DNA of 41,687 nt from a virus (Duplodnaviria; Heunggongvirae; Uroviricota; Caudoviricetes), in IMG/VR virus record IMGVR_UViG_2585427754_000009. One strand, given 5' to 3'. The position numbers and the translations under genes are program-made. This document shows positions 5,041 to 40,512 of this stretch, in pieces. The stretch's first letter is position 1. Every line of letters starts with the position of its first letter. The notes below the pieces were generated by a model. It had not been told where the DNA came from, did no database searches, and was given only the letters and a program-made list of their open reading frames with translations.

Positions 5041-6096
5041 GGCTTTGTTGAATAAATAAGATTTCGTGCGAACGACCCTGTAGCTGGCTGGATTTTCAGG
5101 CAATACGCACGCTTTCTGGCATCCCAGCCTTTGTCATCCTGTTCAACGCACGCACCATGGCCATAGCTTCCGCTACCTGACCATCGTAGTCACGCAGCGT
5201 CAGTGAATCTCCCAACAACTGCTTCATTCTGTACATTGCCGTTTCCGCTATCGAGCGACGGTTATATTCCGTTGTCCATTTCCACCGTGCATTGCTTCCG
5301 CTCAGCCGCTGATTAGCAACGGCACGGTTGCGGTCTGCGTACTCACCGGGCCAGTAACCTGCTCCTTTTCGGGGAGGAATAAGCGCGCTGATTTTTTTGC
5401 GGCGCAGTTCATCGTGACAGAGCCGGGTATCGTAAGCCCCGTCTGCCGCGGCTGCCCTGATTTTTCTGTGAGTCTGCCGGATAAGGCCCGGGAAGGCTTC
5501 TGAGTCCGTGACGTTATTCAGCGACAGGTCTGCACAGACAACTTCATGTGTGTTGCTGTCAACAGCAAGATGCAACTTTCGCCAGATACGACGGCGCTCT
5601 TTGCCGTGCTTTCTGACTTTCCATTCGCCTTCACCAAAGACCTTCAGCCCGGTGGAATCAATCACCAGGTGTGCGATTTCACCCCGGGTGGACGTTTTGA
5701 AACTGACATTAACCGACTTTGCCCGCTTACTGACACTGGTGTAATCCGGGCAGCGCAACGGAACGTTCATCAGGGCAAAAATGGAATCAATAAAACCCTG
5801 CGCAGCCCGCAGGGTCAGCCGGAATACGCGTTTAATCACCAGAACGGTGGTGATGGCGAGATCAGAATAGCGCTGGGGCCTTCCTCGTGATGAAGGCGTT
5901 GCCGACTCATACCAGGCCTGAATCGCTTCATCATCCAGCCAGAAAGTGAGGGAGCCACGGTTGATGAGAGCTTTGTTGTAGGTGGACCAGTTGGTGATTC
6001 TGAACTTTTGCTTTGCCACGGAATGGTCTGTGTTGTCGGGAGGATGCGTGATCTGATCCTTCAACTCAGCAAAAGTTCGATTTATTCAACAAAGCC
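5041..6096 (-). mobile_element. IS903-like insertion sequence (IS5 family), 1056 bp
   Basis: Terminal inverted repeats GGCTTTGTTGAATAAAT(A/C) at 5041-5058 and 6079-6096 (17 of 18 identical). Single transposase ORF. Flanked by a perfect 9-bp direct repeat. Confidence 0.92.
5096..6064 (-). CDS. IS903-family transposase
   Basis: 322-aa ORF ...QKFRITNWSTYNKALINRGSLTFWLDDEAIQAWY... recognised from memory as IS903/IS102 transposase (DDE). True start may be a few codons inside the ORF. Confidence 0.92.
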   Translation of the reverse strand: MKDQITHPPDNTDHSVAKQKFRITNWSTYNKALINRGSLTFWLDDEAIQAWYESATPSSRGRPQRYSDLAITTVLVIKRVFRLTLRAAQGFIDSIFALMNVPLRCPDYTSVSKRAKSVNVSFKTSTRGEIAHLVIDSTGLKVFGEGEWKVRKHGKERRRIWRKLHLAVDSNTHEVVCADLSLNNVTDSEAFPGLIRQTHRKIRAAAADGAYDTRLCHDELRRKKISALIPPRKGAGYWPGEYADRNRAVANQRLSGSNARWKWTTEYNRRSIAETAMYRMKQLLGDSLTLRDYDGQVAEAMAMVRALNRMTKAGMPESVRIA

Positions 6097-8388: not shown

Positions 8389-9330
8389 ATGAGCACTAAA
8401 TTAACCGGCTATGTATGGGATGGTTGCGCTGCATCAGGCATGAAATTATCCAGCGTGGCAATTATGGCCCGCCTGGCTGATTTCAGTAATGACGAAGGTG
8501 TGTGCTGGCCATCAATTGAAACCATTGCCCGCCAGATTGGCGCGGGAATGAGTACCGTCAGAACGGCTATCGCACGGCTGGAAGCAGAAGGCTGGTTAAC
8601 GCGTAAGGCGCGTCGCCAGGGTAACCGCAATGCGTCGAATGTTTATCAGCTTAACGTTGTGAAGCTTCAGGCAGCGGCATTTTCTCAACTGTCAGATTCT
8701 GACCCGTCAAAATCTGACGCATCAAAATCTGACCCGTCAAAATTTGATGCGTCGAAATCTGGCAAAAAAGCGGGTTTTCACCCGTCAGAATCTGGCGGGG
8801 ATCCGTCAGTAAAATCAAAACATGATCCGTCAGATAAAAAAACTTCTCGTCCGGACGCTTCGCAACCGGACACGCAGACGGCTGAACAGGAGTTTTTAAC
8901 TCGCCATCCTGATGCGGTTGTATTCAGCCCTAAAAAGCGCCAGTGGGGAACGCAGGATGATTTGACCTGCGCACAGTGGCTCTGGAAAAAAATCATCGCC
9001 CTGTACGAGCAGGCCGCCGAATGTGACGGCGAGGTGGTTCGTCCCAAAGAACCGAACTGGACAGCCTGGGCAAACGAAATTCGCCTGATGTGTGTGCAGG
9101 ATGGTCGTACTCATAAACAAATCTGCGAGATGTACAGCCGCGTCAGTCGCGATCCGTTCTGGTGCCGTAACGTGCTCAGCCCGTCGAAGCTGCGGGAAAA
9201 ATGGGATGAGCTTTCCCTGCGCTTATCGCCGTCCGTCAGCACGTACACCGAAAAACGCGAAGACCCGTACTTCAAATCCAGTTACGACAACGTGGACTAC
9301 AGCCAGATCCCGGCAGGATTCAGGGGGTGA
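8389..9330 (+). CDS. Replication initiator, lambda O-like (N-terminal winged helix, internal repeat linker)
   Basis: N-terminal wHTH region (SVAIMARLADFSNDEGVCWPSIETIARQIGAGMSTVRTAIARLEAEGWL); pentapeptide repeats SKSDA/SKSDP/SKFDA encoded by 15-bp iterons; AGAGG RBS. Confidence 0.75.
   Translation: MSTKLTGYVWDGCAASGMKLSSVAIMARLADFSNDEGVCWPSIETIARQIGAGMSTVRTAIARLEAEGWLTRKARRQGNRNASNVYQLNVVKLQAAAFSQLSDSDPSKSDASKSDPSKFDASKSGKKAGFHPSESGGDPSVKSKHDPSDKKTSRPDASQPDTQTAEQEFLTRHPDAVVFSPKKRQWGTQDDLTCAQWLWKKIIALYEQAAECDGEVVRPKEPNWTAWANEIRLMCVQDGRTHKQICEMYSRVSRDPFWCRNVLSPSKLREKWDELSLRLSPSVSTYTEKREDPYFKSSYDNVDYSQIPAGFRG
8691..8845. repeat. Iteron array and AT-rich tract (putative origin) inside the initiator gene
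   Basis: Tandem 15-bp units starting 8706, 8721, 8736, 8751 (GTCAAAATCTGAC-like), related copies at 8784 and 8806, then A-rich tract (CAGATAAAAAAAC). Architecture like ori-lambda within O. Confidence 0.6.
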
Positions 9331-9332
9331 TC

Positions 9333-9821
9333 ATGAGTCTTTTGAATGAAGTTCAGAAATTCATTGAAGCCCATCCGGGATGTACTTCCGGAGACATTGC
9401 GGATGCTTTTGCAGGTTACTCACGGCAGCGCGTTCTGCAGTCAGCAAGCAAGTTACGTCAGAGTGGGCGTGTGGCTCACCGTTGTGAAGGAGATACACGC
9501 AGACATTTCCCGCGCCTGACTGAGAGAGCGCAGGAACCGGAACCACAACCAGTTCGAGAAACCAGACCTGTGCGCAATTTCTATGTCGGCACTAACGATC
9601 CCCAGGTGATTTTGTGCCTGACCCGCCAGGCTGAAGAACTGGAGTCCAGGGGCTTATACCGTCGTGCTGCAACCGTGTGGATGGCGGCATTCCGTGAAAG
9701 CCACTCCCAGCCAGAACGAAACAATTTTCTGGCGCGTCGTGAGCGGTGCTTACGGAAAAGCAGCAAGCGCGCTGCATCGGGTGAAGAGTGGTATCTCTCA
9801 GGGAATTACGTGGGGGCTTAA
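9333..9821 (+). CDS. PerC-like transcriptional activator family protein
   Basis: ATG at 9333 with GGGGGTGA RBS. Central LTRQAEELESRGLYRRAATVWMAAF recalled as PerC-family signature. Low certainty. Confidence 0.45.
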   Translation: MSLLNEVQKFIEAHPGCTSGDIADAFAGYSRQRVLQSASKLRQSGRVAHRCEGDTRRHFPRLTERAQEPEPQPVRETRPVRNFYVGTNDPQVILCLTRQAEELESRGLYRRAATVWMAAFRESHSQPERNNFLARRERCLRKSSKRAASGEEWYLSGNYVGA

Positions 9822-10474
9822 TGAGTAATAAATATTGCCAGGCGCTGGCGGAACTGCGGAACAAACCAGCCCATGAACTGAAGGAAGTGGGCGATCAGTG
9901 GCGCACGCCGGACAACATTTTCTGGGGAATTAACACCCTGTTTGGCCCGTTTGTTCTGGATCTGTTCACTGACGGTGATAACGCCAAATGTGCTGCGTAT
10001 TACACGGCGGAAGACAACGCGCTGGCGCATGACTGGTCAGAACGCCTTGCGGAGCTTAAAGGTGCTGCCTTTGGTAATCCCCCATACAGCCGCGCCAGTC
10101 AGCATGAGGGGCAATACATCACCGGCATGCGTTACATCATGAAGCATGCCAGTGCCATGCGTGATAAAGGCGGGCGCTATGTTTTCCTGATCAAAGCTGC
10201 CACCAGCGAAGTGTGGTGGCCGGAAGATGCAGATCATATTGCTTTTATTCGCGGGCGTATTGGTTTTGAACTGCCTGCCTGGTTTATCCCGAAGGATGAG
10301 AAGCAGGTGCCGACAGGCGCTTTCTTCGCTGGTGCTATTGCTGTTTTCGACAAGACCTGGAAGGGACCGGCAATCAGCTACATCGGGCGCGATGAACTTG
10401 AGGCATGTGGTGAGGCCTTTCTGGCGCAGGTTCGCCAGCAGGCAGAAAAACTGGTCAGGGAGATGGCGGCATGA
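9821..10474 (+). CDS. dam: Phage Dam-type N6-adenine DNA methyltransferase
   Basis: TAATG coupling to the upstream gene. NPPY catalytic motif (AAFGNPPYSR). 217 aa; typical phage orphan Dam family. Confidence 0.85.
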   Translation: MSNKYCQALAELRNKPAHELKEVGDQWRTPDNIFWGINTLFGPFVLDLFTDGDNAKCAAYYTAEDNALAHDWSERLAELKGAAFGNPPYSRASQHEGQYITGMRYIMKHASAMRDKGGRYVFLIKAATSEVWWPEDADHIAFIRGRIGFELPAWFIPKDEKQVPTGAFFAGAIAVFDKTWKGPAISYIGRDELEACGEAFLAQVRQQAEKLVREMAA

Positions 10475-10797
10475 CGACGTTAACTCAATGCCAGCAGCAG
10501 GTGCTGGATATGCTGATTTCTTATCAGAAAGAACGTGGCTTCCCGCCAACCAATCAGGAGGTGGCAACCATGCTGGGATACCGTTCAGTGAATGCAGCGG
10601 TGGAGCATCTTCGCGCACTGGAGAAAAAAGGCGTCATCACGATAAAGCGTGGCGTGGCCCGGGGCATCACGCTTCATATCGCGGTGAAGGACGACGACAG
10701 CGAGGCGGTCGGGATTATCCGCTCACTGCTTGCCGGTGAGGAAAACGCAAGGCTGCGTGCAACCCACTGGTTACATGAGAGGGGCCTGAAAGTATGA
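10471..10797 (+). CDS. LexA-N-terminal-like DNA-binding protein (108 aa)
   Basis: ATGA overlap with dam. QQQVLDMLISYQKERGFPPTNQEVATMLGYRSVNAAVEHLRALEKKGVI resembles the LexA DNA-binding domain; no peptidase domain. Confidence 0.6.
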   Translation: MTTLTQCQQQVLDMLISYQKERGFPPTNQEVATMLGYRSVNAAVEHLRALEKKGVITIKRGVARGITLHIAVKDDDSEAVGIIRSLLAGEENARLRATHWLHERGLKV

Positions 10798-11183
10798 AGC
10801 TGATCCTGCCTTTTCCACCCAGCGTGAACACGTACTGGCGACACCCCAACAAAGGGGCGTTTGCTGGTAAGAGCCTGATAAGCGCGGCGGGGCGAAAATT
10901 CCAGAGCTCGGCGTGCGCAGCAATAGTTGAGCAGTTACGTCGTCTGCCGAAACCAACGTCGGCACCTGCTTCTGTGGAGATCGTGTTGTTTCCTCCGGAT
11001 AACAGGATCCGCGATCTGGACAACTATAACAAGGCGCTGTTTGACGCCCTGACCCACGCGGGGGTGTGGGAAGACGACAGTCAGGTGAAAAGAATGCTGG
11101 TGGAGTGGGGATCGGTTATCCCGGAAGGGAAGGTCGAGATCACTATCAGTAAGTACGAGAAAACGGCGGGTGCAGCCGCCTGA
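10794..11183 (+). CDS. rusA: RusA Holliday-junction resolvase
   Basis: 129-aa ORF with LPFPPSVNTYWRH...DLDNYNKALFDALTHAGVWEDDSQV, the conserved RusA acidic catalytic motif. Confidence 0.85.
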   Translation: MKLILPFPPSVNTYWRHPNKGAFAGKSLISAAGRKFQSSACAAIVEQLRRLPKPTSAPASVEIVLFPPDNRIRDLDNYNKALFDALTHAGVWEDDSQVKRMLVEWGSVIPEGKVEITISKYEKTAGAAA

Positions 11184-11202
11184 TCAAGAGGAGAAACGAA
11201 GT

Positions 11203-12012
11203 ATGAATAATCTGATGGTCATTGATGGTATTGAAGTTCGTTGTGATGCTTATGGGCGTTACAGCCTGAACGATCTGCATCGCGCAGCAGTAGCATCTGG
11301 TGCAAATGCCAGAACCAAGGAGCCAGGAAAGTTTCTTTCCAGCCAACAAACTGTTGAGCTTGTTCATGAATTGACCAACACCCAGAATTTGGGTGTTGAC
11401 CCGGTGAGTGTGATTCATGGGGGCAATGAACGGGGAACGTATGTCTGCAAAGAACTGGTGTATGCCTATGCAATGTGGATCAGCCCGTCATTCCATCTAA
11501 AGGTGATCCGTACTTTCGATATGGTAACCAGCGCACCGGAAAAATTATTCGGGCAGGCTGCTGACAAGATGCAGGCTGGTGTGATTCTGCTGGACTTTAT
11601 GCGCAGGGAGTTAAACCTGTCTAACTCATCTGTGCTTGGTGCCTGTCAGAAACTTCAGGAGGCTGTTGGCTTACCGAATCTGGCACCGCGCTATGCCATT
11701 GATGCTCCTGCTGATGCACACGATGGCTCAAGTCGCCCGACACTGTCACTGAGTGCACTGCTGAAACAGTATGGTATCCGCCTGACGGCTAATCAGGCAT
11801 ATCACCAGATGGTGAAGCTGGGGATCGTCGAGCAGCGCGAACGATACAGCCGTACCGCGATTAACAACATCAAAAAATTCTGGTCGCTGACAGCGAAAGG
11901 CTGCATGTTCGGCAAGAACATCACCAGTCCCGCAAATCCGCGCGAGACGCAGCCGCATTTCTTCGAATCCCGATTCCCAGAGCTGTTAAAGCTGCTCGAT
12001 ACCGTTCATTGA
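11203..12012 (+). CDS. KilA-N domain protein
   Basis: Start at MNNLMVIDGIEVRCDAYGRYSLNDLHRAA with AAGAGGAGA RBS; N-terminal KilA-N/APSES-like DNA-binding fold; divergent C-terminus. Confidence 0.7.
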   Translation: MNNLMVIDGIEVRCDAYGRYSLNDLHRAAVASGANARTKEPGKFLSSQQTVELVHELTNTQNLGVDPVSVIHGGNERGTYVCKELVYAYAMWISPSFHLKVIRTFDMVTSAPEKLFGQAADKMQAGVILLDFMRRELNLSNSSVLGACQKLQEAVGLPNLAPRYAIDAPADAHDGSSRPTLSLSALLKQYGIRLTANQAYHQMVKLGIVEQRERYSRTAINNIKKFWSLTAKGCMFGKNITSPANPRETQPHFFESRFPELLKLLDTVH

Positions 12013-12013
12013 G

Positions 12014-13009
12014 GTGACCGTGAGAGCACTACTGACCCCTGAAATTGCCCCGCGTATGGGGATCGTATTGTTCAGGCCAGGTTCAGAGCTGATGCCCTTG
12101 TTTATGCAGGGGCGTGTCCTGCTGGAGCCTGAGCCGGAACGTTATTCATCTTTCGCCAGTGGTGCCGTTCCCGCGGCATCACAACCGCTGGCGGATGATC
12201 CTGCCGTTCGGGCCGTGTTCCGCAATGAGGCAGTGATCCGTCGTGCTGGTGGCGTGGAATGTCTTGAAAGCTGGTTACTTCGTGAAAAAGGCTGCCAGTG
12301 GCTTCATTCCGACTGGCACAGCGAGAACATGACAACAATGCGACACGCTCCGGGCGCAATCCGTCTGTGCTGGCACTGCGATAACCAGCTGCGCGATCAG
12401 TTCACGGAACGGCTGGAATCAATGGCAACGGATAACTGTGCCCGCTGGGTGTTGTCTGTTGTGCGTCGGGATCTCGGTTTTGATGACAGTCACGTTGTGA
12501 CAATGCCGGAACTGTGCTGGTGGCTGATTCGTAATGACCTTGCGGACGCCTTACCGGAAAGTGCAGCCCGTAAGGCACTGAGATTACCGAAGCCTGTTGT
12601 GCCGTCTGTCACCCGGGAAAGTGACCTTGTGCCTTCGGTTCCTGCCACCAGCATCATCCAGGATAAGGCGAAAAAGGTGCTGGCGCTGAAAGTGGATCCG
12701 GAGTCGCCGGAGTCTTTTATGTTACGCCCAAAACGTCGCCGCTGGGTTAATGAAAAGTACACGCGCTGGGTTAAGACACAGCCGTGTGCATGTTGTGGAA
12801 AGCCTGCTGATGATCCCCACCACCTGATAGGTCACGGTCAGGGTGGAATGGGAACAAAAGCGCATGACCTCTTTGTGTTGCCTTTGTGCAGAAAGCATCA
12901 CGACGAGCTGCATGCGGATACCGTGGCATTTGAAGAGAAGTATGGCTCCCAGCTGGAGCTGATATTTCGTTTTATCGATCGTGCGCTGGCAATAGGTGTA
13001 CTGGCGTAA
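12014..13009 (+). CDS. DUF968-family protein with C-terminal Cys/His (HNH-like) motif
   Basis: GTG start. C-terminal CACCGKPADDPHHLIGHGQGGMGTKAHDLFVLPLCRKHHDELH; position in the nin-like region upstream of Q. Confidence 0.6.
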   Translation: MTVRALLTPEIAPRMGIVLFRPGSELMPLFMQGRVLLEPEPERYSSFASGAVPAASQPLADDPAVRAVFRNEAVIRRAGGVECLESWLLREKGCQWLHSDWHSENMTTMRHAPGAIRLCWHCDNQLRDQFTERLESMATDNCARWVLSVVRRDLGFDDSHVVTMPELCWWLIRNDLADALPESAARKALRLPKPVVPSVTRESDLVPSVPATSIIQDKAKKVLALKVDPESPESFMLRPKRRRWVNEKYTRWVKTQPCACCGKPADDPHHLIGHGQGGMGTKAHDLFVLPLCRKHHDELHADTVAFEEKYGSQLELIFRFIDRALAIGVLA

Positions 13010-13022
13010 GTGGAGAACGAGC

Positions 13023-13775
13023 ATGAACCTTGAAGCCTTACCGAAATATTACTCCCCAAAATCTCCAAAATTGAGCGATGACGCACCGGCGACAGGCTCT
13101 GGTGGTTTAACAATTACGGATGTGATGGCTGCGCAGGGGATGGTGCAGTCGAAAGCACCGCTTGGGTTTGCCTTATTCCTGGCAAAAGTTGGTGTTCAGG
13201 ATCCTCAGTTTGCGATTGAAGGTCTGCTCAATTACGCGATGGCACTGGATAACCCGACATTGAATAAATTGAGTGAAGAAACCCGGCTACAGATTATTCC
13301 TTACCTTGTGAATTTTGCCTTTGCTGATTATTCCAGGTCTGCGGCAAGTAAGGCTCGCTGTGAGCATTGTGCTGGTACTGGATTTCATAATGTATTGCGC
13401 GAAGTGGTGAAACACTCCAGAAGCGGGGAATCTGTTATCAAGGAAGAGTGGGTGAAGGAACTATGTCAGCATTGTCATGGTAAGGGAGAAGTCAGCACAG
13501 CGTGCAGAGGGTGTAAGGGTAAAGGTATTGTCCTGGATGAAAAAAGGACCCGGCTTCATGGCACGCCTGTTTATAAGATTTGTGGGCGTTGCAATGGAAA
13601 TCGGTTTAGCCGTTTACCAACCACACTGGCGCGGCATCATGTCCAGAAGCTGGTACCAGACCTGACGGATTATCAGTGGTACAAAGGATATGCAGATGTC
13701 ATTGATAAACTGGTGACAAAGTGCTGGCAGGAAGAAGCATATGCTGAGACGCAATTAAGAAAAGTGACGAGATAA
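13023..13775 (+). CDS. Q: Late-gene antiterminator Q
   Basis: Start MNLEALPKYY with GGAGA RBS. Paired CxxC zinc-finger motifs (CEHCAGTG, CQHCHGKGE, CRGCKGKG, CGRCNG). Immediately followed by promoter and terminator. Confidence 0.8.
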   Translation: MNLEALPKYYSPKSPKLSDDAPATGSGGLTITDVMAAQGMVQSKAPLGFALFLAKVGVQDPQFAIEGLLNYAMALDNPTLNKLSEETRLQIIPYLVNFAFADYSRSAASKARCEHCAGTGFHNVLREVVKHSRSGESVIKEEWVKELCQHCHGKGEVSTACRGCKGKGIVLDEKRTRLHGTPVYKICGRCNGNRFSRLPTTLARHHVQKLVPDLTDYQWYKGYADVIDKLVTKCWQEEAYAETQLRKVTR

Positions 13776-13806
13776 ATGATTTTCGCCGAAGATGGCGACA
13801 TAATTC

Positions 13807-13835
13807 TTGCATTTTTCAAAAAATATGGATAAGAT
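13807..13835 (+). promoter_or_regulatory. Late promoter pR' (and presumed qut site)
   Basis: TTGCAT (13807-13812), 17-bp spacer, TAAGAT (13830-13835); 32 bp after the Q stop. Confidence 0.6.
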
Positions 13836-13883
13836 TTTCCCAACGATGGGCTTTGTATGTCTACCGTTGATAAGATTTAAGAC

Positions 13884-13906
13884 CCCGCCGCTGAGCGGGT
13901 TTTTTT
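13884..13906 (+). terminator. Intrinsic terminator tR'
   Basis: CCCGC-cgctga-GCGGG hairpin followed by T7; about 50 nt downstream of the pR' -10. Confidence 0.65.
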
Positions 13907-14025
13907 GTGCCTTGATGTTGGCAGTACGGTAAACACGCTGGTGGTCGTGAATACTGACTTTTTATCTTGCTGGCTTTTTAGACAAGAGTTATTGGTATGT
14001 CATGTTAACCAGAAGGAAAAAAGAC

Positions 14026-14220
14026 ATGCTAAAACAGCTAGATATGACAGAAACGGCGAAAGTTGTTTTTAATGAATTAAGCGTCGAACCGGCAACAGTC
14101 GGGGAGATAGCACAAAACACATACCTTTCACGCGAACGCTGTCAGTTAATACTGACCCAGCTGGTTATGGCGGGGCTGGCAGATTACCAGTTCGGCTGTT
14201 ACAGACGCCTTCAGCAATGA
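14026..14220 (+). CDS. Small hypothetical protein (64 aa), possible winged-helix
   Basis: Second in-frame ATG preferred (AAGGA RBS). Sits between tR' and a methyltransferase gene. No family recognised. Confidence 0.45.
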   Translation: MLKQLDMTETAKVVFNELSVEPATVGEIAQNTYLSRERCQLILTQLVMAGLADYQFGCYRRLQQ

Positions 14221-14369
14221 AGGGCTTTTAATTTGTGAAAATGGGCGGCTGGTGGGTGTTGGTAGCACCTGCCAGCCATTCGCTCATGCTTACTGGTCAC
14301 AAGCGAACCATGGCCCACTGCTTTAGCGCAAAAGCAGAGTGAGCCTACCAGAGTTACGCTTACTGATCC

Positions 14370-15422
14370 ATGAAAAATACTGTAAAAATAAACAGTATTG
14401 ATTTAATCAACGCTGATTGCCTGCATTTTATTCAGTCCCTGCCTGATGATTCCATTGACCTGATAGTTACCGATCCGCCGTACTTCAAAGTGAAGCCCAA
14501 CGGTTGGGACAATCAGTGGAAAGGGGACGAAGATTACCTTAAGTGGCTGGACCACTGTCTGGCTCAGTTCTGGCGGGTGTTAAAACCTGCCGGAAGCCTT
14601 TACCTGTTCTGTGGACATCGCCTGGCATCTGATATCGAGATCATGATGCGTGAACGTTTCAACGTGCTTAACCATATCATCTGGGCGAAGCCGTCCGGAC
14701 GATGGAACGGGTGTAATAAAGAAAGCCTGCGGGCATATTTCCCCGCTACAGAGCGCGTTCTGTTTGCTGAACATTACCAGGGGCCATATCGCGGCAAAAG
14801 TGACGGCTATGCGGAAAAAGAAAGGGAACTCAAACAGCACATAATGGCACCGCTGATATCGTATTTCAGGGATGCACGTGCCGAACTGGGTATAACGGCA
14901 AAACAGATTGCCGAAGCCACTGGTAAGAAAAACATGGTTTCCCACTGGTTTGGTGCCAGTCAGTGGCAGTTGCCGAATGAGGCTGACTACCGGAAGTTGC
15001 AGGCACTGTTTTCCCGTATAGCGGCAGAGAAGTTTCAGGAACAACAACTGGAACAGACACACCACCAGCTGGTGGCATCTTATGATTCACTGAATCGCAA
15101 ATATTCTGAATTGCTGGATGAGTTTAAATCTCTCCGGCGCTATTTCTCCGTATCAGTCTCCGTGCCTTATACCGATGTCTGGACGCATAAACCCGTTCAG
15201 TTCTACCCGGGTAAACATCCGTGTGAGAAACCGGCGGATATGCTCCGGCAAATAATCAATGCCAGTAGTCGACCAGGTGATCTGGTTGCTGATTTTTTTA
15301 TGGGATCTGGTTCCACAATAAAAGCAGCAATGGAGCTGGGGCGTCGGGCGTTAGGTGTTGAGCTTGAGTCAGATCGGTTTAACCAGACAGTGAAAGAGGT
15401 AAGTGAACTGGTGGGGAAATAA
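14370..15422 (+). CDS. Orphan DNA methyltransferase (N6A/N4C type, beta-class motif order)
   Basis: DPPY catalytic motif near the N-terminus (DLIVTDPPYF) and AdoMet motif FxGSGST near the C-terminus (FFMGSGSTIKAAMELGR). No adjacent nuclease gene. Confidence 0.8.
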   Translation: MKNTVKINSIDLINADCLHFIQSLPDDSIDLIVTDPPYFKVKPNGWDNQWKGDEDYLKWLDHCLAQFWRVLKPAGSLYLFCGHRLASDIEIMMRERFNVLNHIIWAKPSGRWNGCNKESLRAYFPATERVLFAEHYQGPYRGKSDGYAEKERELKQHIMAPLISYFRDARAELGITAKQIAEATGKKNMVSHWFGASQWQLPNEADYRKLQALFSRIAAEKFQEQQLEQTHHQLVASYDSLNRKYSELLDEFKSLRRYFSVSVSVPYTDVWTHKPVQFYPGKHPCEKPADMLRQIINASSRPGDLVADFFMGSGSTIKAAMELGRRALGVELESDRFNQTVKEVSELVGK

Positions 15423-15499
15423 TTCTGGTGGCCACGTTGCGTGGCCTTTTTATTTCCAACACAGCACCCGCAAATAATCGCGAGGTGAGAGATGACGAA

Positions 15500-15835
15500 A
15501 TGCCTCATAACCCAAATACCTGGCCGGACTGGCTGGAGTTGTTCCAGAGCTGGTGGCGTGGAGATACGCCGCTGGGCGCAGTGATTATGTCGATTGTTAT
15601 GGCTGGTTTGCGTATTGCCTATTTTGGTGGTGGTGGCGGCTGGAAACGAAAAACACTCGAAATTTTGCTCTGTGGCGCTCTGACGCTGACCTTTGCATCC
15701 GCGCTTGAGTATGTCGGATGGCCTAAATCGCTTTCTGTTGCCATTGGTGGTGGGGTGGGGCTGATCGGGGTCGATGCAATTCGTGGGGCTGCAATGAGAG
15801 TAATCGGTAACAAGTTTGGTGGCTCTAAGGAGTAA
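15500..15835 (+). CDS. Holin (three predicted transmembrane segments)
   Basis: ATG at 15500 (MPHNPNTW...). Hydrophobic segments LGAVIMSIVMAGLRIAYF, LEILLCGALTLTFASALEYV, LSVAIGGGVGLIGVDAI. Directly upstream of the endolysin. The GTG at 15428 is an alternative start. Confidence 0.7.
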   Translation: MPHNPNTWPDWLELFQSWWRGDTPLGAVIMSIVMAGLRIAYFGGGGGWKRKTLEILLCGALTLTFASALEYVGWPKSLSVAIGGGVGLIGVDAIRGAAMRVIGNKFGGSKE

Positions 15836-15838
15836 TTT

Positions 15839-16315
15839 ATGCAGGTACTAAATTCCCAGCGTAAAGCTTTCCTCGATATGGTGGCATGGTCAGAAGGAAC
15901 GGATAATGGACGGCAACCGACATGTAACCACGGTTATGACGTTATTGTCGGTGGTGAACTCTTCACTGATTACTCCGACCACCCTCGCAAACTTGTCACG
16001 CTAAACCCAAAACTTAAATCAACGGCTGCTGGACGCTACCAGATTCTTTCCCGATGGTGGGATGCTTACCGTAAACAGCTTGGTCTGAAAGACTTCTCCC
16101 CCAAAAGCCAGGACGCAGTGGCATTGCAGCAGATTAAAGAGCGTGGTGCTTTACCGATGATTGATCGCGGTGATATCCGTCAGGCTATCGATCGTTGCAG
16201 CAATATCTGGGCTTCACTGCCGGGCGCAGGTTACGGTCAGTATGAACATAAAATCGGTGACCTGATTGCCCGATTTAAAGAGGCTGGTGGGGTGGTAAAT
16301 GAAGTTGAGTTATAA
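15839..16315 (+). CDS. R: Endolysin, lambda R-type lytic transglycosylase
   Basis: 158-aa product near-identical to lambda R from memory (NSQRKAFLDMVAWSEGTDNGRQ...GYDVIVGGELFTDYSDHPRK). AAGGAG RBS. Confidence 0.93.
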   Translation: MQVLNSQRKAFLDMVAWSEGTDNGRQPTCNHGYDVIVGGELFTDYSDHPRKLVTLNPKLKSTAAGRYQILSRWWDAYRKQLGLKDFSPKSQDAVALQQIKERGALPMIDRGDIRQAIDRCSNIWASLPGAGYGQYEHKIGDLIARFKEAGGVVNEVEL

Positions 16316-16931: not shown

Positions 16932-17486
16932 ATGAACGAAAATTATATTGCATATGAGACACTTGTAGCAAACCGTGCTGCTGCTGAGTGGGCTTGTTGG
17001 GCAATGATTGCATCTTGGGTGAGTGCTGGAGCTACTATTGTTACTTTGTTTTTGGCGTTCAAGGCATTATTTACGTGGCGGGAACAAGAGAAAACAAAAG
17101 TAAAAATAGATTTTAGGAATGCATTAAAGAAATTAAAGACAGCTCTATTATTTATGCCTGTCAATATTGACCCCGAGCAACTCAATGATGAACGAGAGCA
17201 AGTTATTGCGAAATGGCTATTTAAAGATGTAGATCTTATTAGTCAGCAAATTGAGTTGGGAGAAGAGAATGTTAAAAGATTTGATGAGCTTTTGAGTATT
17301 TTCGATTGTTGCCAATCTTCATGGTTTGCGACAGAGCACTTATTTGATAATACTGAGTTAGAAAAAGTTTGGCATGAGTTCGAGTCTAACTTTAATAAAT
17401 ATATAAATGGTGGTGAGAGTAAGGATTTACTTATGAAAATGCTTGATAAGCTCATCTCTTCTAGATTTGTATTTGAGTCAAGATAA
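16932..17486 (+). CDS. Hypothetical membrane-anchored protein (184 aa) on an AT-rich moron
   Basis: GAGGT RBS. One N-terminal TM segment (AEWACWAMIASWVSAGATIVTLFLAFKALF) then a Lys/Glu-rich helical domain. Local GC visibly far below neighbours. Between lysis cassette and HNH/terminase. Confidence 0.6.
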   Translation: MNENYIAYETLVANRAAAEWACWAMIASWVSAGATIVTLFLAFKALFTWREQEKTKVKIDFRNALKKLKTALLFMPVNIDPEQLNDEREQVIAKWLFKDVDLISQQIELGEENVKRFDELLSIFDCCQSSWFATEHLFDNTELEKVWHEFESNFNKYINGGESKDLLMKMLDKLISSRFVFESR

Positions 17487-17536: not shown

Positions 17537-17887
17537 ATGCCCCCTAGAATCCCAAAAGCCTGCCGCGTTCGCGGCTGCCGCAATACCACGACTGACCCGT
17601 CAGGCTACTGCGAAAGCCACAAAAGCGAAGGCTGGAAACAATACAAGCCAGGACAATCCCGTCACCAGCGCGGCTATGGTTCGAAGTGGGATGTTATCCG
17701 CGCGCGTGTGCTGAAGCGTGATAAAGGTTTATGTCAGTTATGTCTGCGTGCTGGTGTGGTGCGTGAGGCGAAAACCGTTGACCACATCATTCCTAAAGCG
17801 CATGGCGGCTCTGATGCCGACAGTAATCTGCAGAGCCTGTGCTGGCCGTGTCATAAGGCGAAGACGGCCCGTGAACGGCTGAAGTAA
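17537..17887 (+). CDS. HNH endonuclease (terminase-associated)
   Basis: Cys-rich N-terminus (CRVRGCRNTTTDPSGYCESH) and HNH core (VDHIIPKAHGGSDADSNLQSLCWPCHKAK). Immediately upstream of the terminase genes. Confidence 0.85.
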   Translation: MPPRIPKACRVRGCRNTTTDPSGYCESHKSEGWKQYKPGQSRHQRGYGSKWDVIRARVLKRDKGLCQLCLRAGVVREAKTVDHIIPKAHGGSDADSNLQSLCWPCHKAKTARERLK

Positions 17888-35390: not shown

Positions 35391-36116
35391 ATGCATCGTA
35401 TAGACACGAAAACCGCGCAGAAGGATAAGTTCGGCGCGGGTAAGAACGGTTTTACCCGTGGTAACCCCCAGACAGGCACGCCTGCCACCGATCTGGATGA
35501 TGACTACTTTGACATGTTGCAGGAGGAGCTTTGCAGCGTGGTGGAGGCATCCGGTGCCAGCCTGGAGAAGGGGCGGCACGACCAGTTGCTTACCGCGCTT
35601 CGTGCGCTGCTGTTAAGCCGCAAGAATCCGTTTGGCGATATCAAATCGGATGGCACGGTGAAAACGGCTCTCGAAAACCTTGGTTTGGGAGAAGGCTCAG
35701 CATTACCTGTTGGGGTGCCTGTTCCGTGGCCTTCAGCCACTCCGCCAACAGGCTGGTTGAAATGCAATGGTGCGGCTTTTTCTGCTGAAGAATACCCGGA
35801 ACTGGCAAAGGCTTACCCGACAAATAAATTGCCTGATTTACGCGGTGAATTTATTCGTGGATGGGATGATGGGCGCGGGGTGGATTCCTCTCGTGGTTTG
35901 TTGACATCTCAAGACCATTTATTTGCTTCTCATGGGCACTGGTTTGACAAGTACTATGCGCTAACAGGTTTTGATCCAACGGGAGGTCGGTTCGTAGTTA
36001 CGGCTGATGCTTTCGGGGAACTTATTACGGCAAATTCAATTTCTACGGTATCGGTTGGTGGTTCTGAAACCCGGCCGCGCAACGTCGCATTTAACTATAT
36101 CGTGAGGGCAGCCTGA
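35391..36116 (+). CDS. Tail fibre protein (constant N-terminus joined to the currently expressed variable C-terminus)
   Basis: GGAG RBS. 241 aa. Recombination crossover site lies in codons 93-101. C-terminal collar-like motif [19 protein letters not shown]. Confidence 0.8.
35668..35693. repeat. Invertase crossover site (gix/pix-like), left
   Basis: CTCTCGAAAACCTTGGTTTGGGAGAA; the last 14 bp are a perfect inverted repeat of 37514-37527. Confidence 0.75.
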
Positions 36117-36718
36117 TGAATAAAGCCGTATTAAATAGCGAACTCATTACTACAAAGGCAGGAAACATTACCGTTTATAATTTTGATGCTGAGACGAAGG
36201 AATATCTTTCCACATCAACCGAATATCTTGTTGTGGGTGTCGGTATTCCGGCGTATTCCTGTTTAGATGCTCCTGGTACATATAAGGCTGGTTATACTAT
36301 CTGCCGTTCAGCAGATTTAAAATCATGGGAATATATGCCAGACCATCGCGGTGAAATCGTTTTTAGCACCGAAACAGGGGAATCAAAAGAAATCACAGCT
36401 CCGGGTGATTACCCTGATAATACAACCACTATCGCCCCGTTAACGCCATACGATAAATGGGATGGTGAGAAATGGGTGACGGATACCGAGGCACAGCACG
36501 GCGCAGCAGTAGATGCAGCAGAAGCACAGCGCCAGTCGCTGATTGATACTGCAATGGCCTCCATCAGTCTGATTCAGCTGAAATTGCAGGCCGGACGTAA
36601 ACTGACGCAGGCAGAAACAACCCGCCTTAACGCTGTGCTGGATTACATTGACGCGGTGACGGCAACAGATACCAGCACCGCGCCGGATGTCATCTGGCCT
36701 GAACTGTCGGAGGCGTAG
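36116..36718 (+). CDS. Tail fibre assembly chaperone (Tfa)
   Basis: 200 aa. The C-terminal third (ALTPYDKWDGEKWVTDTEAQ...DVIWPELSEA) is homologous to the C-terminus of the convergent minus-strand Tfa. Confidence 0.8.
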   Translation: MNKAVLNSELITTKAGNITVYNFDAETKEYLSTSTEYLVVGVGIPAYSCLDAPGTYKAGYTICRSADLKSWEYMPDHRGEIVFSTETGESKEITAPGDYPDNTTTIAPLTPYDKWDGEKWVTDTEAQHGAAVDAAEAQRQSLIDTAMASISLIQLKLQAGRKLTQAETTRLNAVLDYIDAVTATDTSTAPDVIWPELSEA

Positions 36719-37133
36719 GCCATTCAATATCTGGCGCACCGGAAGTATCGACCAGCTCCAGTGCGTCCAGATAATCCAGCCACAAATTATATTGCGCCAG
36801 TTCGTCACCTTTCAGACGACCAATAGCGGCTTTACCGGGCCATTGTTTACTGTTCATGTATTCGTTGGCCTGGTTAATTAATAGCTGTCTTTCTGATTCA
36901 GTAATTTCAATAAGCTCTTCATGCGTGGGTGGAGGAATATCTGCCCACGCAGGCAGCCCATCATTTCCGGCAATACGGATCTTTCCTTGTGGCGGTTCAG
37001 CCATAAACTCACTGATAATATTTTGATTCACTTCCTTAGCATCTGATAAATCCCATCCCTCTGATTTATATTTATCAATCATATCCACAGGGAAAAAAGC
37101 ATTATGCCTTGCGCTATAAACATATTCGTTCAT
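36690..37133 (-). CDS. Alternative tail fibre assembly chaperone (Tfa')
   Basis: ATG at 37131-37133 with AGGGTGA RBS. Product MNEYVYSARHNAFFP...DIEWPTPPTVQAR typical of the Tfa family. Convergent with tfa, 29-bp overlap. Confidence 0.8.
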   Translation of the reverse strand: MNEYVYSARHNAFFPVDMIDKYKSEGWDLSDAKEVNQNIISEFMAEPPQGKIRIAGNDGLPAWADIPPPTHEELIEITESERQLLINQANEYMNSKQWPGKAAIGRLKGDELAQYNLWLDYLDALELVDTSGAPDIEWPTPPTVQAR

Positions 37134-37153
37134 ATAAATCACCCTGAATAAAA

Positions 37154-37513
37154 TTACTCACCAACAGCCCACCAACTGTAATTCATCGATACCGTGTCGC
37201 TGGTTGATGACGTTCTGTAAGCAGAATTAAAGCCGGTTAACGTTGGGCCTTCTGCAGTCATCACGAACCCTCGCCCAGCGCCTAAAGGCGCACCGCCATC
37301 ACCAGAATGAGTAAGCATGGCGCAGTCCGCTTTTTTGGGGAAAGGGATGCTGAATGTAATTCTCATTGTTTGCGTCGATAATGTCGGCGTAACCGCACCA
37401 CGACCATATTGCAGGATTTTCCCGTTGGGTAATTTCATCCATCCATCACCACTGGCAAAAGAGGCCATGTCCGGTATCTGATTTTCCCCTGTCCCCACAT
37501 CCCGTTTTGCCGC
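37154..37513 (-). other. Silent alternative tail-fibre C-terminal coding segment
   Basis: Open frame without its own start codon; it begins inside the crossover site in the same codon phase (GLGE) as the expressed fibre gene, so inversion would fuse it in frame to the constant N-terminus. Confidence 0.75.
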
Positions 37514-37539
37514 TTCTCCCAAACCAACGTTTATGAAAA
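37514..37539. repeat. Invertase crossover site (gix/pix-like), right
   Basis: TTCTCCCAAACCAACGTTTATGAAAA; inverted copy of the left site; lies just upstream of the invertase remnant. Confidence 0.75.
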
Positions 37540-37593
37540 TGCAGAAATAACGAGCAAATGGCATCATTCCTGCTTTTGTCAGGGGGAGCTACC

Positions 37594-37817: not shown

Positions 37818-39707
37818 TTAATCGTGTTTTGGCCATACTTTCAATGCAATTTCCCCCAACTTTTTACCCCGCTCCAGGATTTCATCCTCATCCCATTTAT
37901 CCTTAACTATAAGTGGAATGTTCAGTCGTAGATTGGTGTGGACGATGAGAGCATCACGTTTTTTCAGAAATACAGCATTCTGAACAGAACGGTTTACGCT
38001 AAGGTTAAGCAAAGTTAGATTTCCCAACGTAGCTATCGCTTGTTGCCGTTTCCTTACCAGTAGCTGTTCAGGGGTAAGATCGGTTCCAGACAGAACAATT
38101 TGGTTCAATACCGTAGCATCTGAATTTGTCACCATATGACCATTTTCGAGAGGCCAACAGGAATACCAACTTTGAGGCATAAGATGATCGATATCGAGGT
38201 TAGAAAGATTTGGAACATCAGGCTTCTCTGTCTTCACTTGGCGACAAAGTTCTCTTTCAAGTTCCGTTAACATTGAGCGCATTTTCGGTGCGTCGAGCCT
38301 GCCAGGATAAAGTGGAGCATTGATGCAAGCGTTGAGAAATTCTGAGTCCCCAGGCCAACGTGAGGCTTCGCCATTTAAGCTATTGAGGATATTACGTAAC
38401 TCAACACTGGAAATTTCCGTTTTAGACAAGTGCCGCAATACATTCATAAATACATTGTTGTAATTCTTTGGCGTCAGGCCACATACGGCTCTTCGTACTA
38501 CGTAGGAGACAAGATCATTATACATGGCTGCTTTCTCATCATCGGCGATGTTAGCTATCGAAATGAACAAAGCAAGCGGATAAAGTGTCGTCACATCATA
38601 GGCTGCGATGCGATGTCCAAAGTGTGAGATGGGGGTTGTGCCAAAACCACCAACCAATTCTTTATATTGTGATGCATATTGTTTGAGGCGCTTTACTTGC
38701 AGATCTGCTCGTTGTGAAGGCAAGTCCTTACTTACATAATCACGATACTCATTGTAAAGACGAGACAGATCGATTTCACGTTGCCTTTCTGATTGCAATG
38801 TCGCATGCACTAGCCACTCCATGCGTGGTTTATTAATACGACCACGACGTTGTCTTTCTGACCAGTACGTATCTTCAAAGATCTTCCACTCATTCTCATA
38901 TAATTCAACAGCATTAATATTTTCATGTTCAGCGCACATAAAAATATAATTGCGAATAAGATCTGTGGCATGAAGTTCCGCACCTCTGCCATTTAATGTT
39001 TCAAAAATTATTTGAGCGTCATCTTCAGCCTCGAGAAATATGCTTACTAGTTTCAGATCCGTCAAGACAGCCTCAATTAATGCTACAGCATTTTCTCGTG
39101 GTGAGTGATTTTCTATTTTAATCCACTTTATAAAGGCTTCAGTAAAAAAACATAATGCTTCTAGTGATGGCGGGTGATTAAAATGCTTACGCAACGTACC
39201 ATGCTGCGTGAAACTATCAGAGAATACATTCCGGATATCGTCAATATTTTCAACATTAAAACTTTGAATAAAATGAGTTTGATCCCGAAAAGTTGGCCAC
39301 AGTTTGAAGCGCTCTACTTCTTTATTTCGCATTGTGTCTTCGTTTGAGTTTTTCAGGCAAGACGAAATGAGAGGCTCTAAGTTGGAAAGATCTGTCGCAC
39401 GTAATGCTAATCGGATGGATGCCAGAACATATTGAAGAGTGGTCAATCGTTGCTGACCATCAATAATATGTATGGAATCTACACCTAATAATCCTTTTTT
39501 TGGTTGAGGTTCCAGTACCACTGCACCAAGGAAATGGGGAGTTGGTTTTGTACCCGAGAGCCGGGATTGTGCTTTCTCTAGGATATCCTCCAGTAGAGCT
39601 GACCATTGGTTTCGCTGAGTCCATACATAGGCACGTTGATAGAATGGAACGCAGTATTGTCGGCGGTCTTGAAAAAGTTGTTGGACAGTTAGCGTCTCGG
39701 ATTTCAT
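37818..39707 (-). CDS. GmrSD-family type IV restriction endonuclease (DUF262 + DUF1524)
   Basis: N-terminal DUF262 motifs (VPFYQRAYVW and IIDGQQRLTTL). C-terminal DUF1524 His-Me finger region (DIDHLMPQSW...LGNLTLLNLSVNRSV). Start at MKSETLTVQQ (39705-39707) preferred over 39767. AT-rich island. Confidence 0.8.
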   Translation of the reverse strand: MKSETLTVQQLFQDRRQYCVPFYQRAYVWTQRNQWSALLEDILEKAQSRLSGTKPTPHFLGAVVLEPQPKKGLLGVDSIHIIDGQQRLTTLQYVLASIRLALRATDLSNLEPLISSCLKNSNEDTMRNKEVERFKLWPTFRDQTHFIQSFNVENIDDIRNVFSDSFTQHGTLRKHFNHPPSLEALCFFTEAFIKWIKIENHSPRENAVALIEAVLTDLKLVSIFLEAEDDAQIIFETLNGRGAELHATDLIRNYIFMCAEHENINAVELYENEWKIFEDTYWSERQRRGRINKPRMEWLVHATLQSERQREIDLSRLYNEYRDYVSKDLPSQRADLQVKRLKQYASQYKELVGGFGTTPISHFGHRIAAYDVTTLYPLALFISIANIADDEKAAMYNDLVSYVVRRAVCGLTPKNYNNVFMNVLRHLSKTEISSVELRNILNSLNGEASRWPGDSEFLNACINAPLYPGRLDAPKMRSMLTELERELCRQVKTEKPDVPNLSNLDIDHLMPQSWYSCWPLENGHMVTNSDATVLNQIVLSGTDLTPEQLLVRKRQQAIATLGNLTLLNLSVNRSVQNAVFLKKRDALIVHTNLRLNIPLIVKDKWDEDEILERGKKLGEIALKVWPKHD

Positions 39708-40512
39708 GGTATACCTGTAAGCGACATTGTACAAAAGTGAGGAGTTAATCTGATTTAGAACAATCATTTTATGTTGCTATGATACAACGTATTTGTTACC
39801 GGTTAAGTAAAAAACGCGTCTGAACGCTGACGTTTTAGGGCTTTACTAGTTATTCTTTCTTATCTCTTCATCATCCCATCGGCATCCTGTCGAGGTTGTT
39901 GACTTGTTGTTATTTATTTTGTTTAGGCGCTGTTTAATTATTATTGATGGGACTGGTGGTGAGAGGTGATTGAAACCGCAGACAGGTCGTATGCAAGACG
40001 TGCTGCGGTTGGCTGGTAAATGTTAGATAGTGCGAGTATTGAATGATTTCTAGCCGTTATTGATTTTACGTATTTTTGTATGAGAGGATTTGCATCTCCT
40101 GCCACCGACCCTCCATGACTTTACGCCACTGTCTCTAGGGCTGCTATGTGCCAGGAGCAGCCATTGCTAAGTCCATCCTGTATTGTGCAGGTCAGCTCGT
40201 TTTTAAAGAGTCCGGCCATCATCTTACTGGTACAGACACCATATACTTTGTGACGGTCAGGCTACATATGCACAACTCAACTTATTCATCTATTTTTTGC
40301 TTTAGCATGTCAGTGTTGCTTTCTCGTCGGCGGGTGAGCGGTGACCTGACCTGTCGATAAAGGAACGTAGCACGTTTTATGCAACACCCGCATGCGGCAG
40401 AAAATTATTGCCGAACGTTTACCCCTGTCAACAAGCTTTACTTTCTGAGGCGCGCCAGCCCGCGAGGAAAACAATCTGAACATCAAACAATTAATGACAC
40501 AAGAAATACGAT

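Follow-up and report, generated by a model that had tools for sequence, protein, structure and literature searches.

The stretch of viral DNA analyzed here (Caudoviricetes; IMG/VR record IMGVR_UViG_2585427754_000009; 41,687 nucleotides, hereafter the window) is, judged by its sequence, an SfV-type temperate prophage. It carries two different DNA methyltransferase genes on its + strand, one for a Dam-type phage N6-adenine methyltransferase (9821-10474) and one for a beta-class N6-adenine methyltransferase of the M.EcoGII family (14370-15422). The interpretation that we favor, with a probability of roughly 0.65, is that these are two independent self-modification enzymes deployed at different lytic stages, a Dam-type enzyme made early with replication and a late enzyme of predicted non-specific action made before packaging, which would give the phage broad protection against restriction. 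A first-pass annotation of this DNA had described two different orphan methyltransferases, a Dam-type NPPY enzyme in a nin-like region and a DPPY/FxGSGST beta-class enzyme between Q and the lysis genes, and this description has held up throughout: both open reading frames (ORFs) have exactly the boundaries it gave, and they match the Pfam families PF05869 and PF01555. What it missed is that the second enzyme appears to be a non-specific methyltransferase of the M.EcoGII type.

Membership of the early enzyme (217 amino acids) in the PF05869/TIGR01712 family is clear from its profile matches, which reach 156 bits for the Pfam model PF05869 'Dam' (cut-off 28.1) and 255.6 bits for the NCBIfam model TIGR01712 'phage N-6-adenine-methyltransferase' (cut-off 97.05). 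The catalytic motif reads GNPPYSR, and alignment with T1 Dam reveals that the NPPYSR, an upstream acidic LD and a W-TP motif are common to the two proteins, at an overall identity of only 27%. Much closer relatives are found in SfV, the Dam protein of which is 98.6% identical, and among E. coli and Stx2-phage proteins (99-100%); the ratio of nonsynonymous to synonymous substitution rates (dN/dS) against relatives is 0.02-0.08. A search of PDB sequences returned no relative of known structure, and no characterized close homologue was found. In K-12 a shortened copy of the same gene survives as yfdM, with 97% nucleotide identity over its first 267 bases. A fusion of the enzyme with a DNA-binding domain was considered for ST64B sb44 (297 amino acids) and rejected, as the sb44 C-terminus lacks similarity to the protein encoded at 10471-10797 and the only Pfam match there is PF05869. 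Several RefSeq phage records (e.g., NC_003444, NC_019716, NC_009514) label the Dam-type gene 'phosphoadenosine phosphosulfate reductase'. This looks like an annotation error, and it apparently stems from PHROG 33262, a profile of 495 positions whose C-terminal part matches the methyltransferase.

The late enzyme (350 amino acids) matches the Pfam model PF01555 N6_N4_Mtase at 145.8 bits (cut-off 26.7) over residues 29-341, with its motifs in the order TDPPY (motif IV; residues 34-38), a helical, helix-turn-helix target-recognition region, and DFFMGSGST (motif I; residues 308-316). It aligns with M.EcoGII over the full length of both proteins (350 versus 349 amino acids) at about 80% identity, a figure that is approximate because the M.EcoGII sequence was machine-read, with a few evident reading errors, from the supplement of PMC11551740. 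Identity is 98% with SfV orf48, 62% with the PY54 homologue and 53% with phiARM81ld p56. When these proteins were aligned together with a homologue from a Stx2a phage, giving six sequences in all, TDPPY and DFFMGSGST proved invariant in relatives down to 53% identity, and the conserved helical region GxTAKQI..ATG...HWF..SQWQLP was found to be kept in the late enzyme. Two members of this protein family, phiARM81ld p56 from Aeromonas and p25 of the Serratia phage OS31, have been found experimentally to be non-specific adenine methyltransferases; p25, the gene for which lies just upstream of a lysis cassette, is 58% identical to p56 according to its authors (PMC7556043). Because the late enzyme falls inside the range of divergence of the tested non-specific members and retains the conserved helical region, we place it in the M.EcoGII family and predict that it methylates adenine at any sequence. 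It follows from this membership that a readout of its target motif would most likely return no motif.

Substitution of the catalytic motifs, which would have marked either enzyme as dead, is not seen. The motifs are intact, and the dN/dS of the late gene against its relatives (0.05-0.15) together with that of the Dam-type gene spans 0.02-0.15 in comparisons at several distances, so that both genes are under strong purifying selection and both enzymes look functional. If the late enzyme is of the M.EcoGII type, heavily N6-methyladenine (m6A)-modified virion DNA is predicted, with resistance to many restriction enzymes, and the label 'DNA-methyltransferase' that its gene usually bears should be corrected to M.EcoGII-type non-specific enzyme.

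As the first-pass annotation had stated, neither gene adjoins a restriction gene. The Dam-type gene is flanked directly by a PerC-like gene and a gene resembling a LexA DNA-binding domain (DBD), the late gene by a 64-amino-acid ORF and a holin gene, and the restriction-enzyme models of PADLOC matched no protein encoded near either methyltransferase. Nuclease-type domains among the scanned genes occur in RusA, in a DUF968/HNH-like protein (12014-13009), in a terminase-associated HNH protein (17537-17887) and, farther off, in a GmrSD protein (37818-39767, - strand), and none of these four is a cognate restriction gene. That the methyltransferases are nonetheless halves of a restriction-modification pair whose nuclease, DUF968 or GmrSD, is encoded at a distance seems to us hardly credible. 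The DUF968/YdfU protein (+ strand; PF06147, 271.7 bits) does have an HNH-like motif in its C-terminus, where there is a weak HNHc_6 match, and a DUF968 gene lies within a few kb of a PF05869 gene in several distant phages, including Vibrio phage Len, YeP2 and PSTRCR_117lys. Against this, the protein has no PADLOC match and its gene is common and widespread in nin regions, occurring in 187 phage records versus 586 for PF05869 genes, and DUF968 was accordingly rejected as a partner nuclease. A DUF968 gene, ydfU, is also part of the K-12 Qin prophage, which is not known to carry a methyltransferase. The protein encoded at 37818-39767, which is situated at the tail-fiber end of the prophage, is a GmrSD-family Type IV modification-dependent restriction enzyme (649 amino acids; PF03235 and PF07510; PADLOC mREase_IV, 1440 bits), and enzymes of this kind would attack modified DNA and not be blocked by modification. 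The prophage thus attacks modified DNA that comes in while modifying its own.

The staging of the two enzymes is suggested by gene order, which follows the layout of a lambdoid early-right and late region. An O-like replication gene (8389-9330) is followed by the PerC-like gene (9327-9821), dam, a gene for a LexA DBD alone (10471-10797), RusA, KilA-N, DUF968/YdfU, Q (12996-13775), a small ORF, the second methyltransferase gene and the lysis genes for holin, lysozyme and Rz, which begin at 15428. This order puts the Dam-type gene in the early rightward operon, after the replication genes and ahead of Q, and from this company of replication and recombination genes its product should be delayed-early, made during phage DNA replication. 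Its start overlaps the PerC-like stop by one base, and it would be translationally coupled to that gene. The enzyme probably methylates a short adenine-containing site and would keep fast-replicating phage DNA fully modified; as lambda and P22 virion DNA is left under-methylated by host Dam, extra methylase capacity could be of help (PMC8022706).

The late gene, by contrast in timing, lies in the 'moron' slot that holds the stx genes in Stx phages, with Q before it and the lysis genes after it; in SfV, PY54 and phiARM81ld the gene likewise directly precedes the lysis cassette, and in a Stx2a phage it comes after Q and before the tRNA and stx2 genes. The Q-type late antiterminator (+ strand; PF03589 Antiterm, 179.7 bits; phrog_127) corresponds to the gene annotated as Q in SfV, where the annotated start is equivalent to position 13023 of the window. 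A candidate late promoter pR' can be read from the sequence at 13807-13835 (+ strand), with the elements TTGCAT and TAAGAT separated by a 17-nucleotide spacer. Downstream of Q, a tR'-like intrinsic terminator (13884-13906, + strand), in which the hairpin CCCGCCGCTGAGCGGG is followed by a T run, matches a terminator annotated in SfV. A second, terminator-like hairpin (14208-14233, + strand), followed by a T-rich tract, spans the stop codon of the small ORF and, as seen by eye in the alignment, is kept with differing sequences in other genera. In the gap between the late methyltransferase and holin genes lies a strong intrinsic terminator (15430-15456, + strand), with a 7-bp stem containing six G-C pairs followed by TTTTTATTT; the equivalents of the first and third of these three sites, at 13884 and 15430, are annotated as terminators in SfV. 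With tR' and the second terminator ahead of the late gene and the third behind it, RNA polymerase would transcribe the gene only when modified by Q, in the late phase of infection. The enzyme would then methylate adenines in nearly any context just before packaging, and the genomes leaving the cell would be broadly protected, on reaching the next host, from those Type I, II and III restriction enzymes that are m6A-sensitive. Production this late would also sidestep its toxicity, since the cell is by then already doomed. A leader lacking a Shine-Dalgarno sequence probably adds a further control on translation, to which the small ORF perhaps contributes.

Several points weigh against this two-stage reading. 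The candidate pR' failed a consensus promoter scan, which detected no + strand promoter anywhere in 9200-16000, and must be regarded as weak. An IS903-like insertion just leftward of cI may block the early-left operon, leaving the prophage defective. The Dam-type enzyme looks redundant for anti-restriction if the late enzyme covers all adenines, and may have another role. The assignment of GATC as its target is a family-level guess at 27% identity to T1 Dam, and GATC sites are about as frequent in the window as base composition predicts (158 versus 162 expected). T1 Dam and HP1 Dam are GATC enzymes. A possible promoter of its own, which the SfV record (U82619) places as a -35/-10 pair inside the gene upstream of dam, could permit expression of the Dam-type enzyme in the lysogen. 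Finally, there are Type IV enzymes that depend on m6A (PMC11037411), so that heavy methylation of adenine does not protect in every case.

The apparent redundancy of the Dam-type enzyme is one motive for an alternative in which it serves a phage-internal process, such as packaging-site recognition, replication timing, or escape from mismatch repair or SeqA, and in which restriction protection comes from the late enzyme only. On the family data, GATC sites would already be covered by late non-specific methylation, and the Dam-type gene keeps company with replication and recombination genes. The K-12 remnant YfdM has been reported, without biochemistry, to help a T1-like phage propagate (bioRxiv 10.1101/413146), and the distant phage PY54 also maintains a PF05869 gene alongside an M.EcoGII-type gene. 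On the other side, neither a GATC cluster nor a packaging site is linked to the enzyme in the window, the GATC density is unremarkable, and the PF05869 family is present in many virulent phages, for which anti-restriction is the usual reading. We consider this alternative unlikely, although worth keeping in view.

A further possibility, epigenetic regulation in the lysogen by either enzyme or both, with host or prophage genes as the targets, draws on the possible dam promoter and on precedents such as M.EcoGIII, one of the other prophage-borne methyltransferases that alter host expression (PMC6602927). It fits poorly with what has been reported for the family of the late enzyme. M.EcoGII is a prophage-borne, non-specific adenine methyltransferase that is unexpressed in the lysogen and harmful on expression (PMC5778455), and for M.EcoGI/M.EcoGII homologues neither methylation signal nor transcript was detected in lysogens, and constitutive expression was deleterious (PMC5778455, PMC4659465, PMC6602927); the methylomes of E. 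coli strains carrying close homologues gave no signal from them in the lysogenic state (PMC6602927, PMC4659465). In the window, the late gene is placed behind tR' and the second terminator, the consensus scan offers no + strand promoter for it, it is preceded by no Shine-Dalgarno sequence, and non-specific methylation cannot carry site-specific information. We regard the regulatory role as quite improbable. Of the two interpretations offered by the first-pass annotation, self-protection against restriction thus stands as the most plausible role, and control of host genes by epigenetic means is improbable in the case of the late enzyme, given its position downstream of Q and the silence and harmfulness of its homologues.

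How the cell tolerates a gene for so toxic an enzyme might be explained by what lies immediately in front of it. In the 149 nucleotides separating the small ORF from the late methyltransferase ATG there is no Shine-Dalgarno sequence. Instead, this interval contains a conserved structured leader of about 135 nucleotides (14237-14372, + strand) that ends at the start codon and can be described by a covariance model. The leader region is predicted to fold with a minimum free energy of -66.2 kcal/mol (z = -5.1 versus shuffled controls). A scan of viral contigs returned only near-identical copies (95-99%), and sequence diversity was therefore drawn from genome contigs, with one genome taken per species, yielding 80 homologous loci at 61-92% protein identity. 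Conservation of the leader across these loci extends from Escherichia to Providencia, Proteus and Yersinia, with AAUGGGCG kept about 130 nucleotides upstream of the ATG and a near-invariant GAUCYAUG (GATCYATG) at the start codon. Compared with one such locus (L089), the leader is 86% identical, whereas 71% of synonymous sites differ in the adjacent gene, which shows this non-coding leader to be strongly constrained.

The structural core of the leader is a hairpin, P1 (14247-14277), closed by pairing of 14241-14246 with 14282-14287. It persists in many sequence variants, including GGCUGG/CCAGCC, GACUGU/ACAGUC, GGCAGAAG/CUUCUGCC and GAUCGG/CCGAUC, and in an alignment of 34 sequences 94% of the cells of the proposed structure are paired, and both partners are changed in 10 of the pairs, over 31 cells. 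Not one of 500 shuffles did as well, and controls in which the register was slid paired at 33-43%. The leader hairpin is thus backed by compensatory changes across many genera of Enterobacterales. An unbiased scan for covariation between column pairs was too noisy, and a stacked-helix filter supported only a short GCUU/AAGC stem besides P1; elsewhere the leader is conserved in sequence and structurally uninformative. A long-range UGGGC/GCCUA helix proposed by RNAalifold was set aside for want of compensatory support. Occlusion of the start codon by pairing of AUGGG with the UCCAU at the start is only a possibility.

The covariance model finds a single match in the window, at 14237-14372 (145 bits), and in 60 of 88 other loci (approximately 600 kb searched) it gave one full-length match abutting the methyltransferase start codon; the remaining matches were five weak ones of 22-30 bits. 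Rfam yielded no match at gathering score anywhere in the window, and none within the leader at E<=10 (13760-14450). A peptide encoded by the leader was also considered. An ATG inside AAATGGGCG opens a frame of 33 codons in the window, and most relatives carry a one-nucleotide indel in the loop that leads to a stop after seven codons, which indicates that the leader is not coding. We consider the leader a candidate control element for the toxic enzyme.

Upstream of the leader is the small ORF (14026-14220, + strand; phrog_331, E=1.9e-34), the equivalent of SfV orf47, which encodes 64 amino acids from the ATG at 14026 or 72 from 14002. Pfam gives a weak winged-helix signal (TrmB and DprA_WH matches at E ~0.004), and a single-sequence AlphaFold2 model of the product was too poor to use (pLDDT 57.7 on average). 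The protein has no Cys4 motif of a Com-like zinc finger and shares 16% identity with the Com-like protein of phiARM81ld. In 57 of the 80 species loci the small ORF precedes the late methyltransferase gene on its own strand, with a fixed spacing of about 280-355 nucleotides, whereas homologues of the window-type Q were found in only 15 of these loci and holin homologues in only 2. Given that the position of the small ORF is kept where Q and the holin are seldom retained, the small ORF, leader and methyltransferase gene appear to travel together as a cassette, and the small ORF is likely a functional partner of the late methyltransferase.

These observations lead us to propose, tentatively and with somewhat less than even confidence, that the three constitute an undescribed cassette in which the leader is a new cis-regulatory RNA that gates translation of the toxic methyltransferase, as Com does for Mu mom. 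That the Com-like regulator gene of phiARM81ld overlaps its methyltransferase start suggests that post-transcriptional control is a feature of this gene family. More speculatively, the late enzyme might be licensed by the early Dam-type enzyme through the near-invariant GATC directly ahead of the start codon, and RNA methylation, of which the late enzyme is also capable, could provide feedback on its own leader. A conserved leader and small ORF of this kind would explain cellular tolerance of the gene and could represent a new RNA regulator; the leader/small-ORF cassette is the sole part of the present arrangement that might be new.

The pairing of two methyltransferases is itself already known from the published SfV module and is not unusual. 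The interval 9700-15600 is 97% identical to Shigella flexneri phage SfV (U82619) over 98% of its length, and 26 phage records hold at least 80% of it, among them mEp460, cdtI and Stx2c-converting phages. Among 5426 complete E. coli genomes, the Dam-type gene is present in 1725, the late methyltransferase gene in 1124, and the whole 5.6-kb module in one place in 662 (~12%). Orphan methyltransferases are common in temperate phages, and with the pair occurring in about one-eighth of complete E. coli genomes, the finding as originally stated matters little.

Other features of the prophage may be noted. A close E. coli relative has the same prophage beside tRNA-Thr, downstream of proA. The 108-amino-acid protein encoded at 10471-10797 (+ strand) is a LexA DBD without the peptidase domain, and the start of its gene overlaps the dam stop codon (ATGA), a pairing also seen in the close relatives listed; the protein might be an antirepressor or have an influence on the SOS response. 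The closest E. coli relative lacks the IS903-like insertion (1055 bp, 5042-6096), which has terminal inverted repeats GGCTTTGTTGAATAAAT and a DDE transposase gene at 5096-6064 (- strand); the alignments on its two sides share about 10 bp there, suggesting a target-site duplication. A 184-amino-acid ORF (16932-17486, + strand), which neither Pfam nor PADLOC matches, occupies a low-GC patch that separates the Rz genes from the gene for the terminase-associated HNH protein, and is possibly a cargo ('moron') gene. At 35391-37567, a tail-fiber gene is followed by two oppositely oriented tail-fiber assembly genes and a reversed gp53-like fiber C-terminus. An invertible host-range segment is arranged in this way, but no invertase gene was seen adjoining this one.

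Comparison with known systems places the window closest to SfV, in which the gene order is the same, dam and orf48 are the two methyltransferase genes, and the same two terminators are annotated. The two differ in that orf48 is annotated 'unknown' in the SfV record, and in that the window prophage carries the GmrSD-type gene at its tail-fiber end and the IS903-like insertion near cI. In SfV, the tail-fiber end presumably holds the serotype-conversion genes. The Dam-type enzyme shares its Pfam/NCBIfam family with T1 Dam and YfdM. M.EcoGII and M.EcoGI, from prophages of E. coli O104:H4 C227-11, resemble the late enzyme in their beta-class layout (DPPY, helical helix-turn-helix region, FxGxG), in being prophage-borne and in lacking a nuclease partner; the enzyme of the window is another allele, about 20% diverged from M.EcoGII and closest to SfV orf48, and its activity is predicted by this kinship.

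Both of the present gene families are represented in PY54, a Yersinia phage that forms a linear-plasmid prophage unrelated to that of the window. It has a PF05869 gene and, before its holin gene, an M.EcoGII-type gene (NC_005069, 38596-39228 and 41231-42304, respectively). Its PF05869 protein is 31% identical to that of the window and has NPPF in place of NPPY. The pairing of PF05869 with M.EcoGII-type genes may recur more often than phage mosaicism alone explains. The genes for phiARM81ld p56 and OS31 p25, which belong to the protein family of the late enzyme, lie immediately upstream of a holin/lysis cassette, as in the window. In phiARM81ld, a Com-like zinc-finger gene overlaps the methyltransferase start, whereas the window has a small non-Com ORF and the 135-nucleotide leader; a weak leader-like match (30 bits) is found upstream of that com-like gene.

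A further parallel is with Mu mom/com and with the non-specific enzymes Hia5/Hin1523 of Mu-like prophages. The enzymes themselves are unrelated to the late enzyme, Mom being of the acyltransferase type and Hia5/Hin1523 belonging to an alpha-class Dam-like family other than that of the Dam-type enzyme described here, and no Com zinc-finger protein is encoded at the late methyltransferase gene of the window. What these systems have in common with the proposed cassette is the strategy, in which a toxic enzyme of broad adenine modification is made only late and is placed under an additional layer of post-transcriptional control (PMC3299994).

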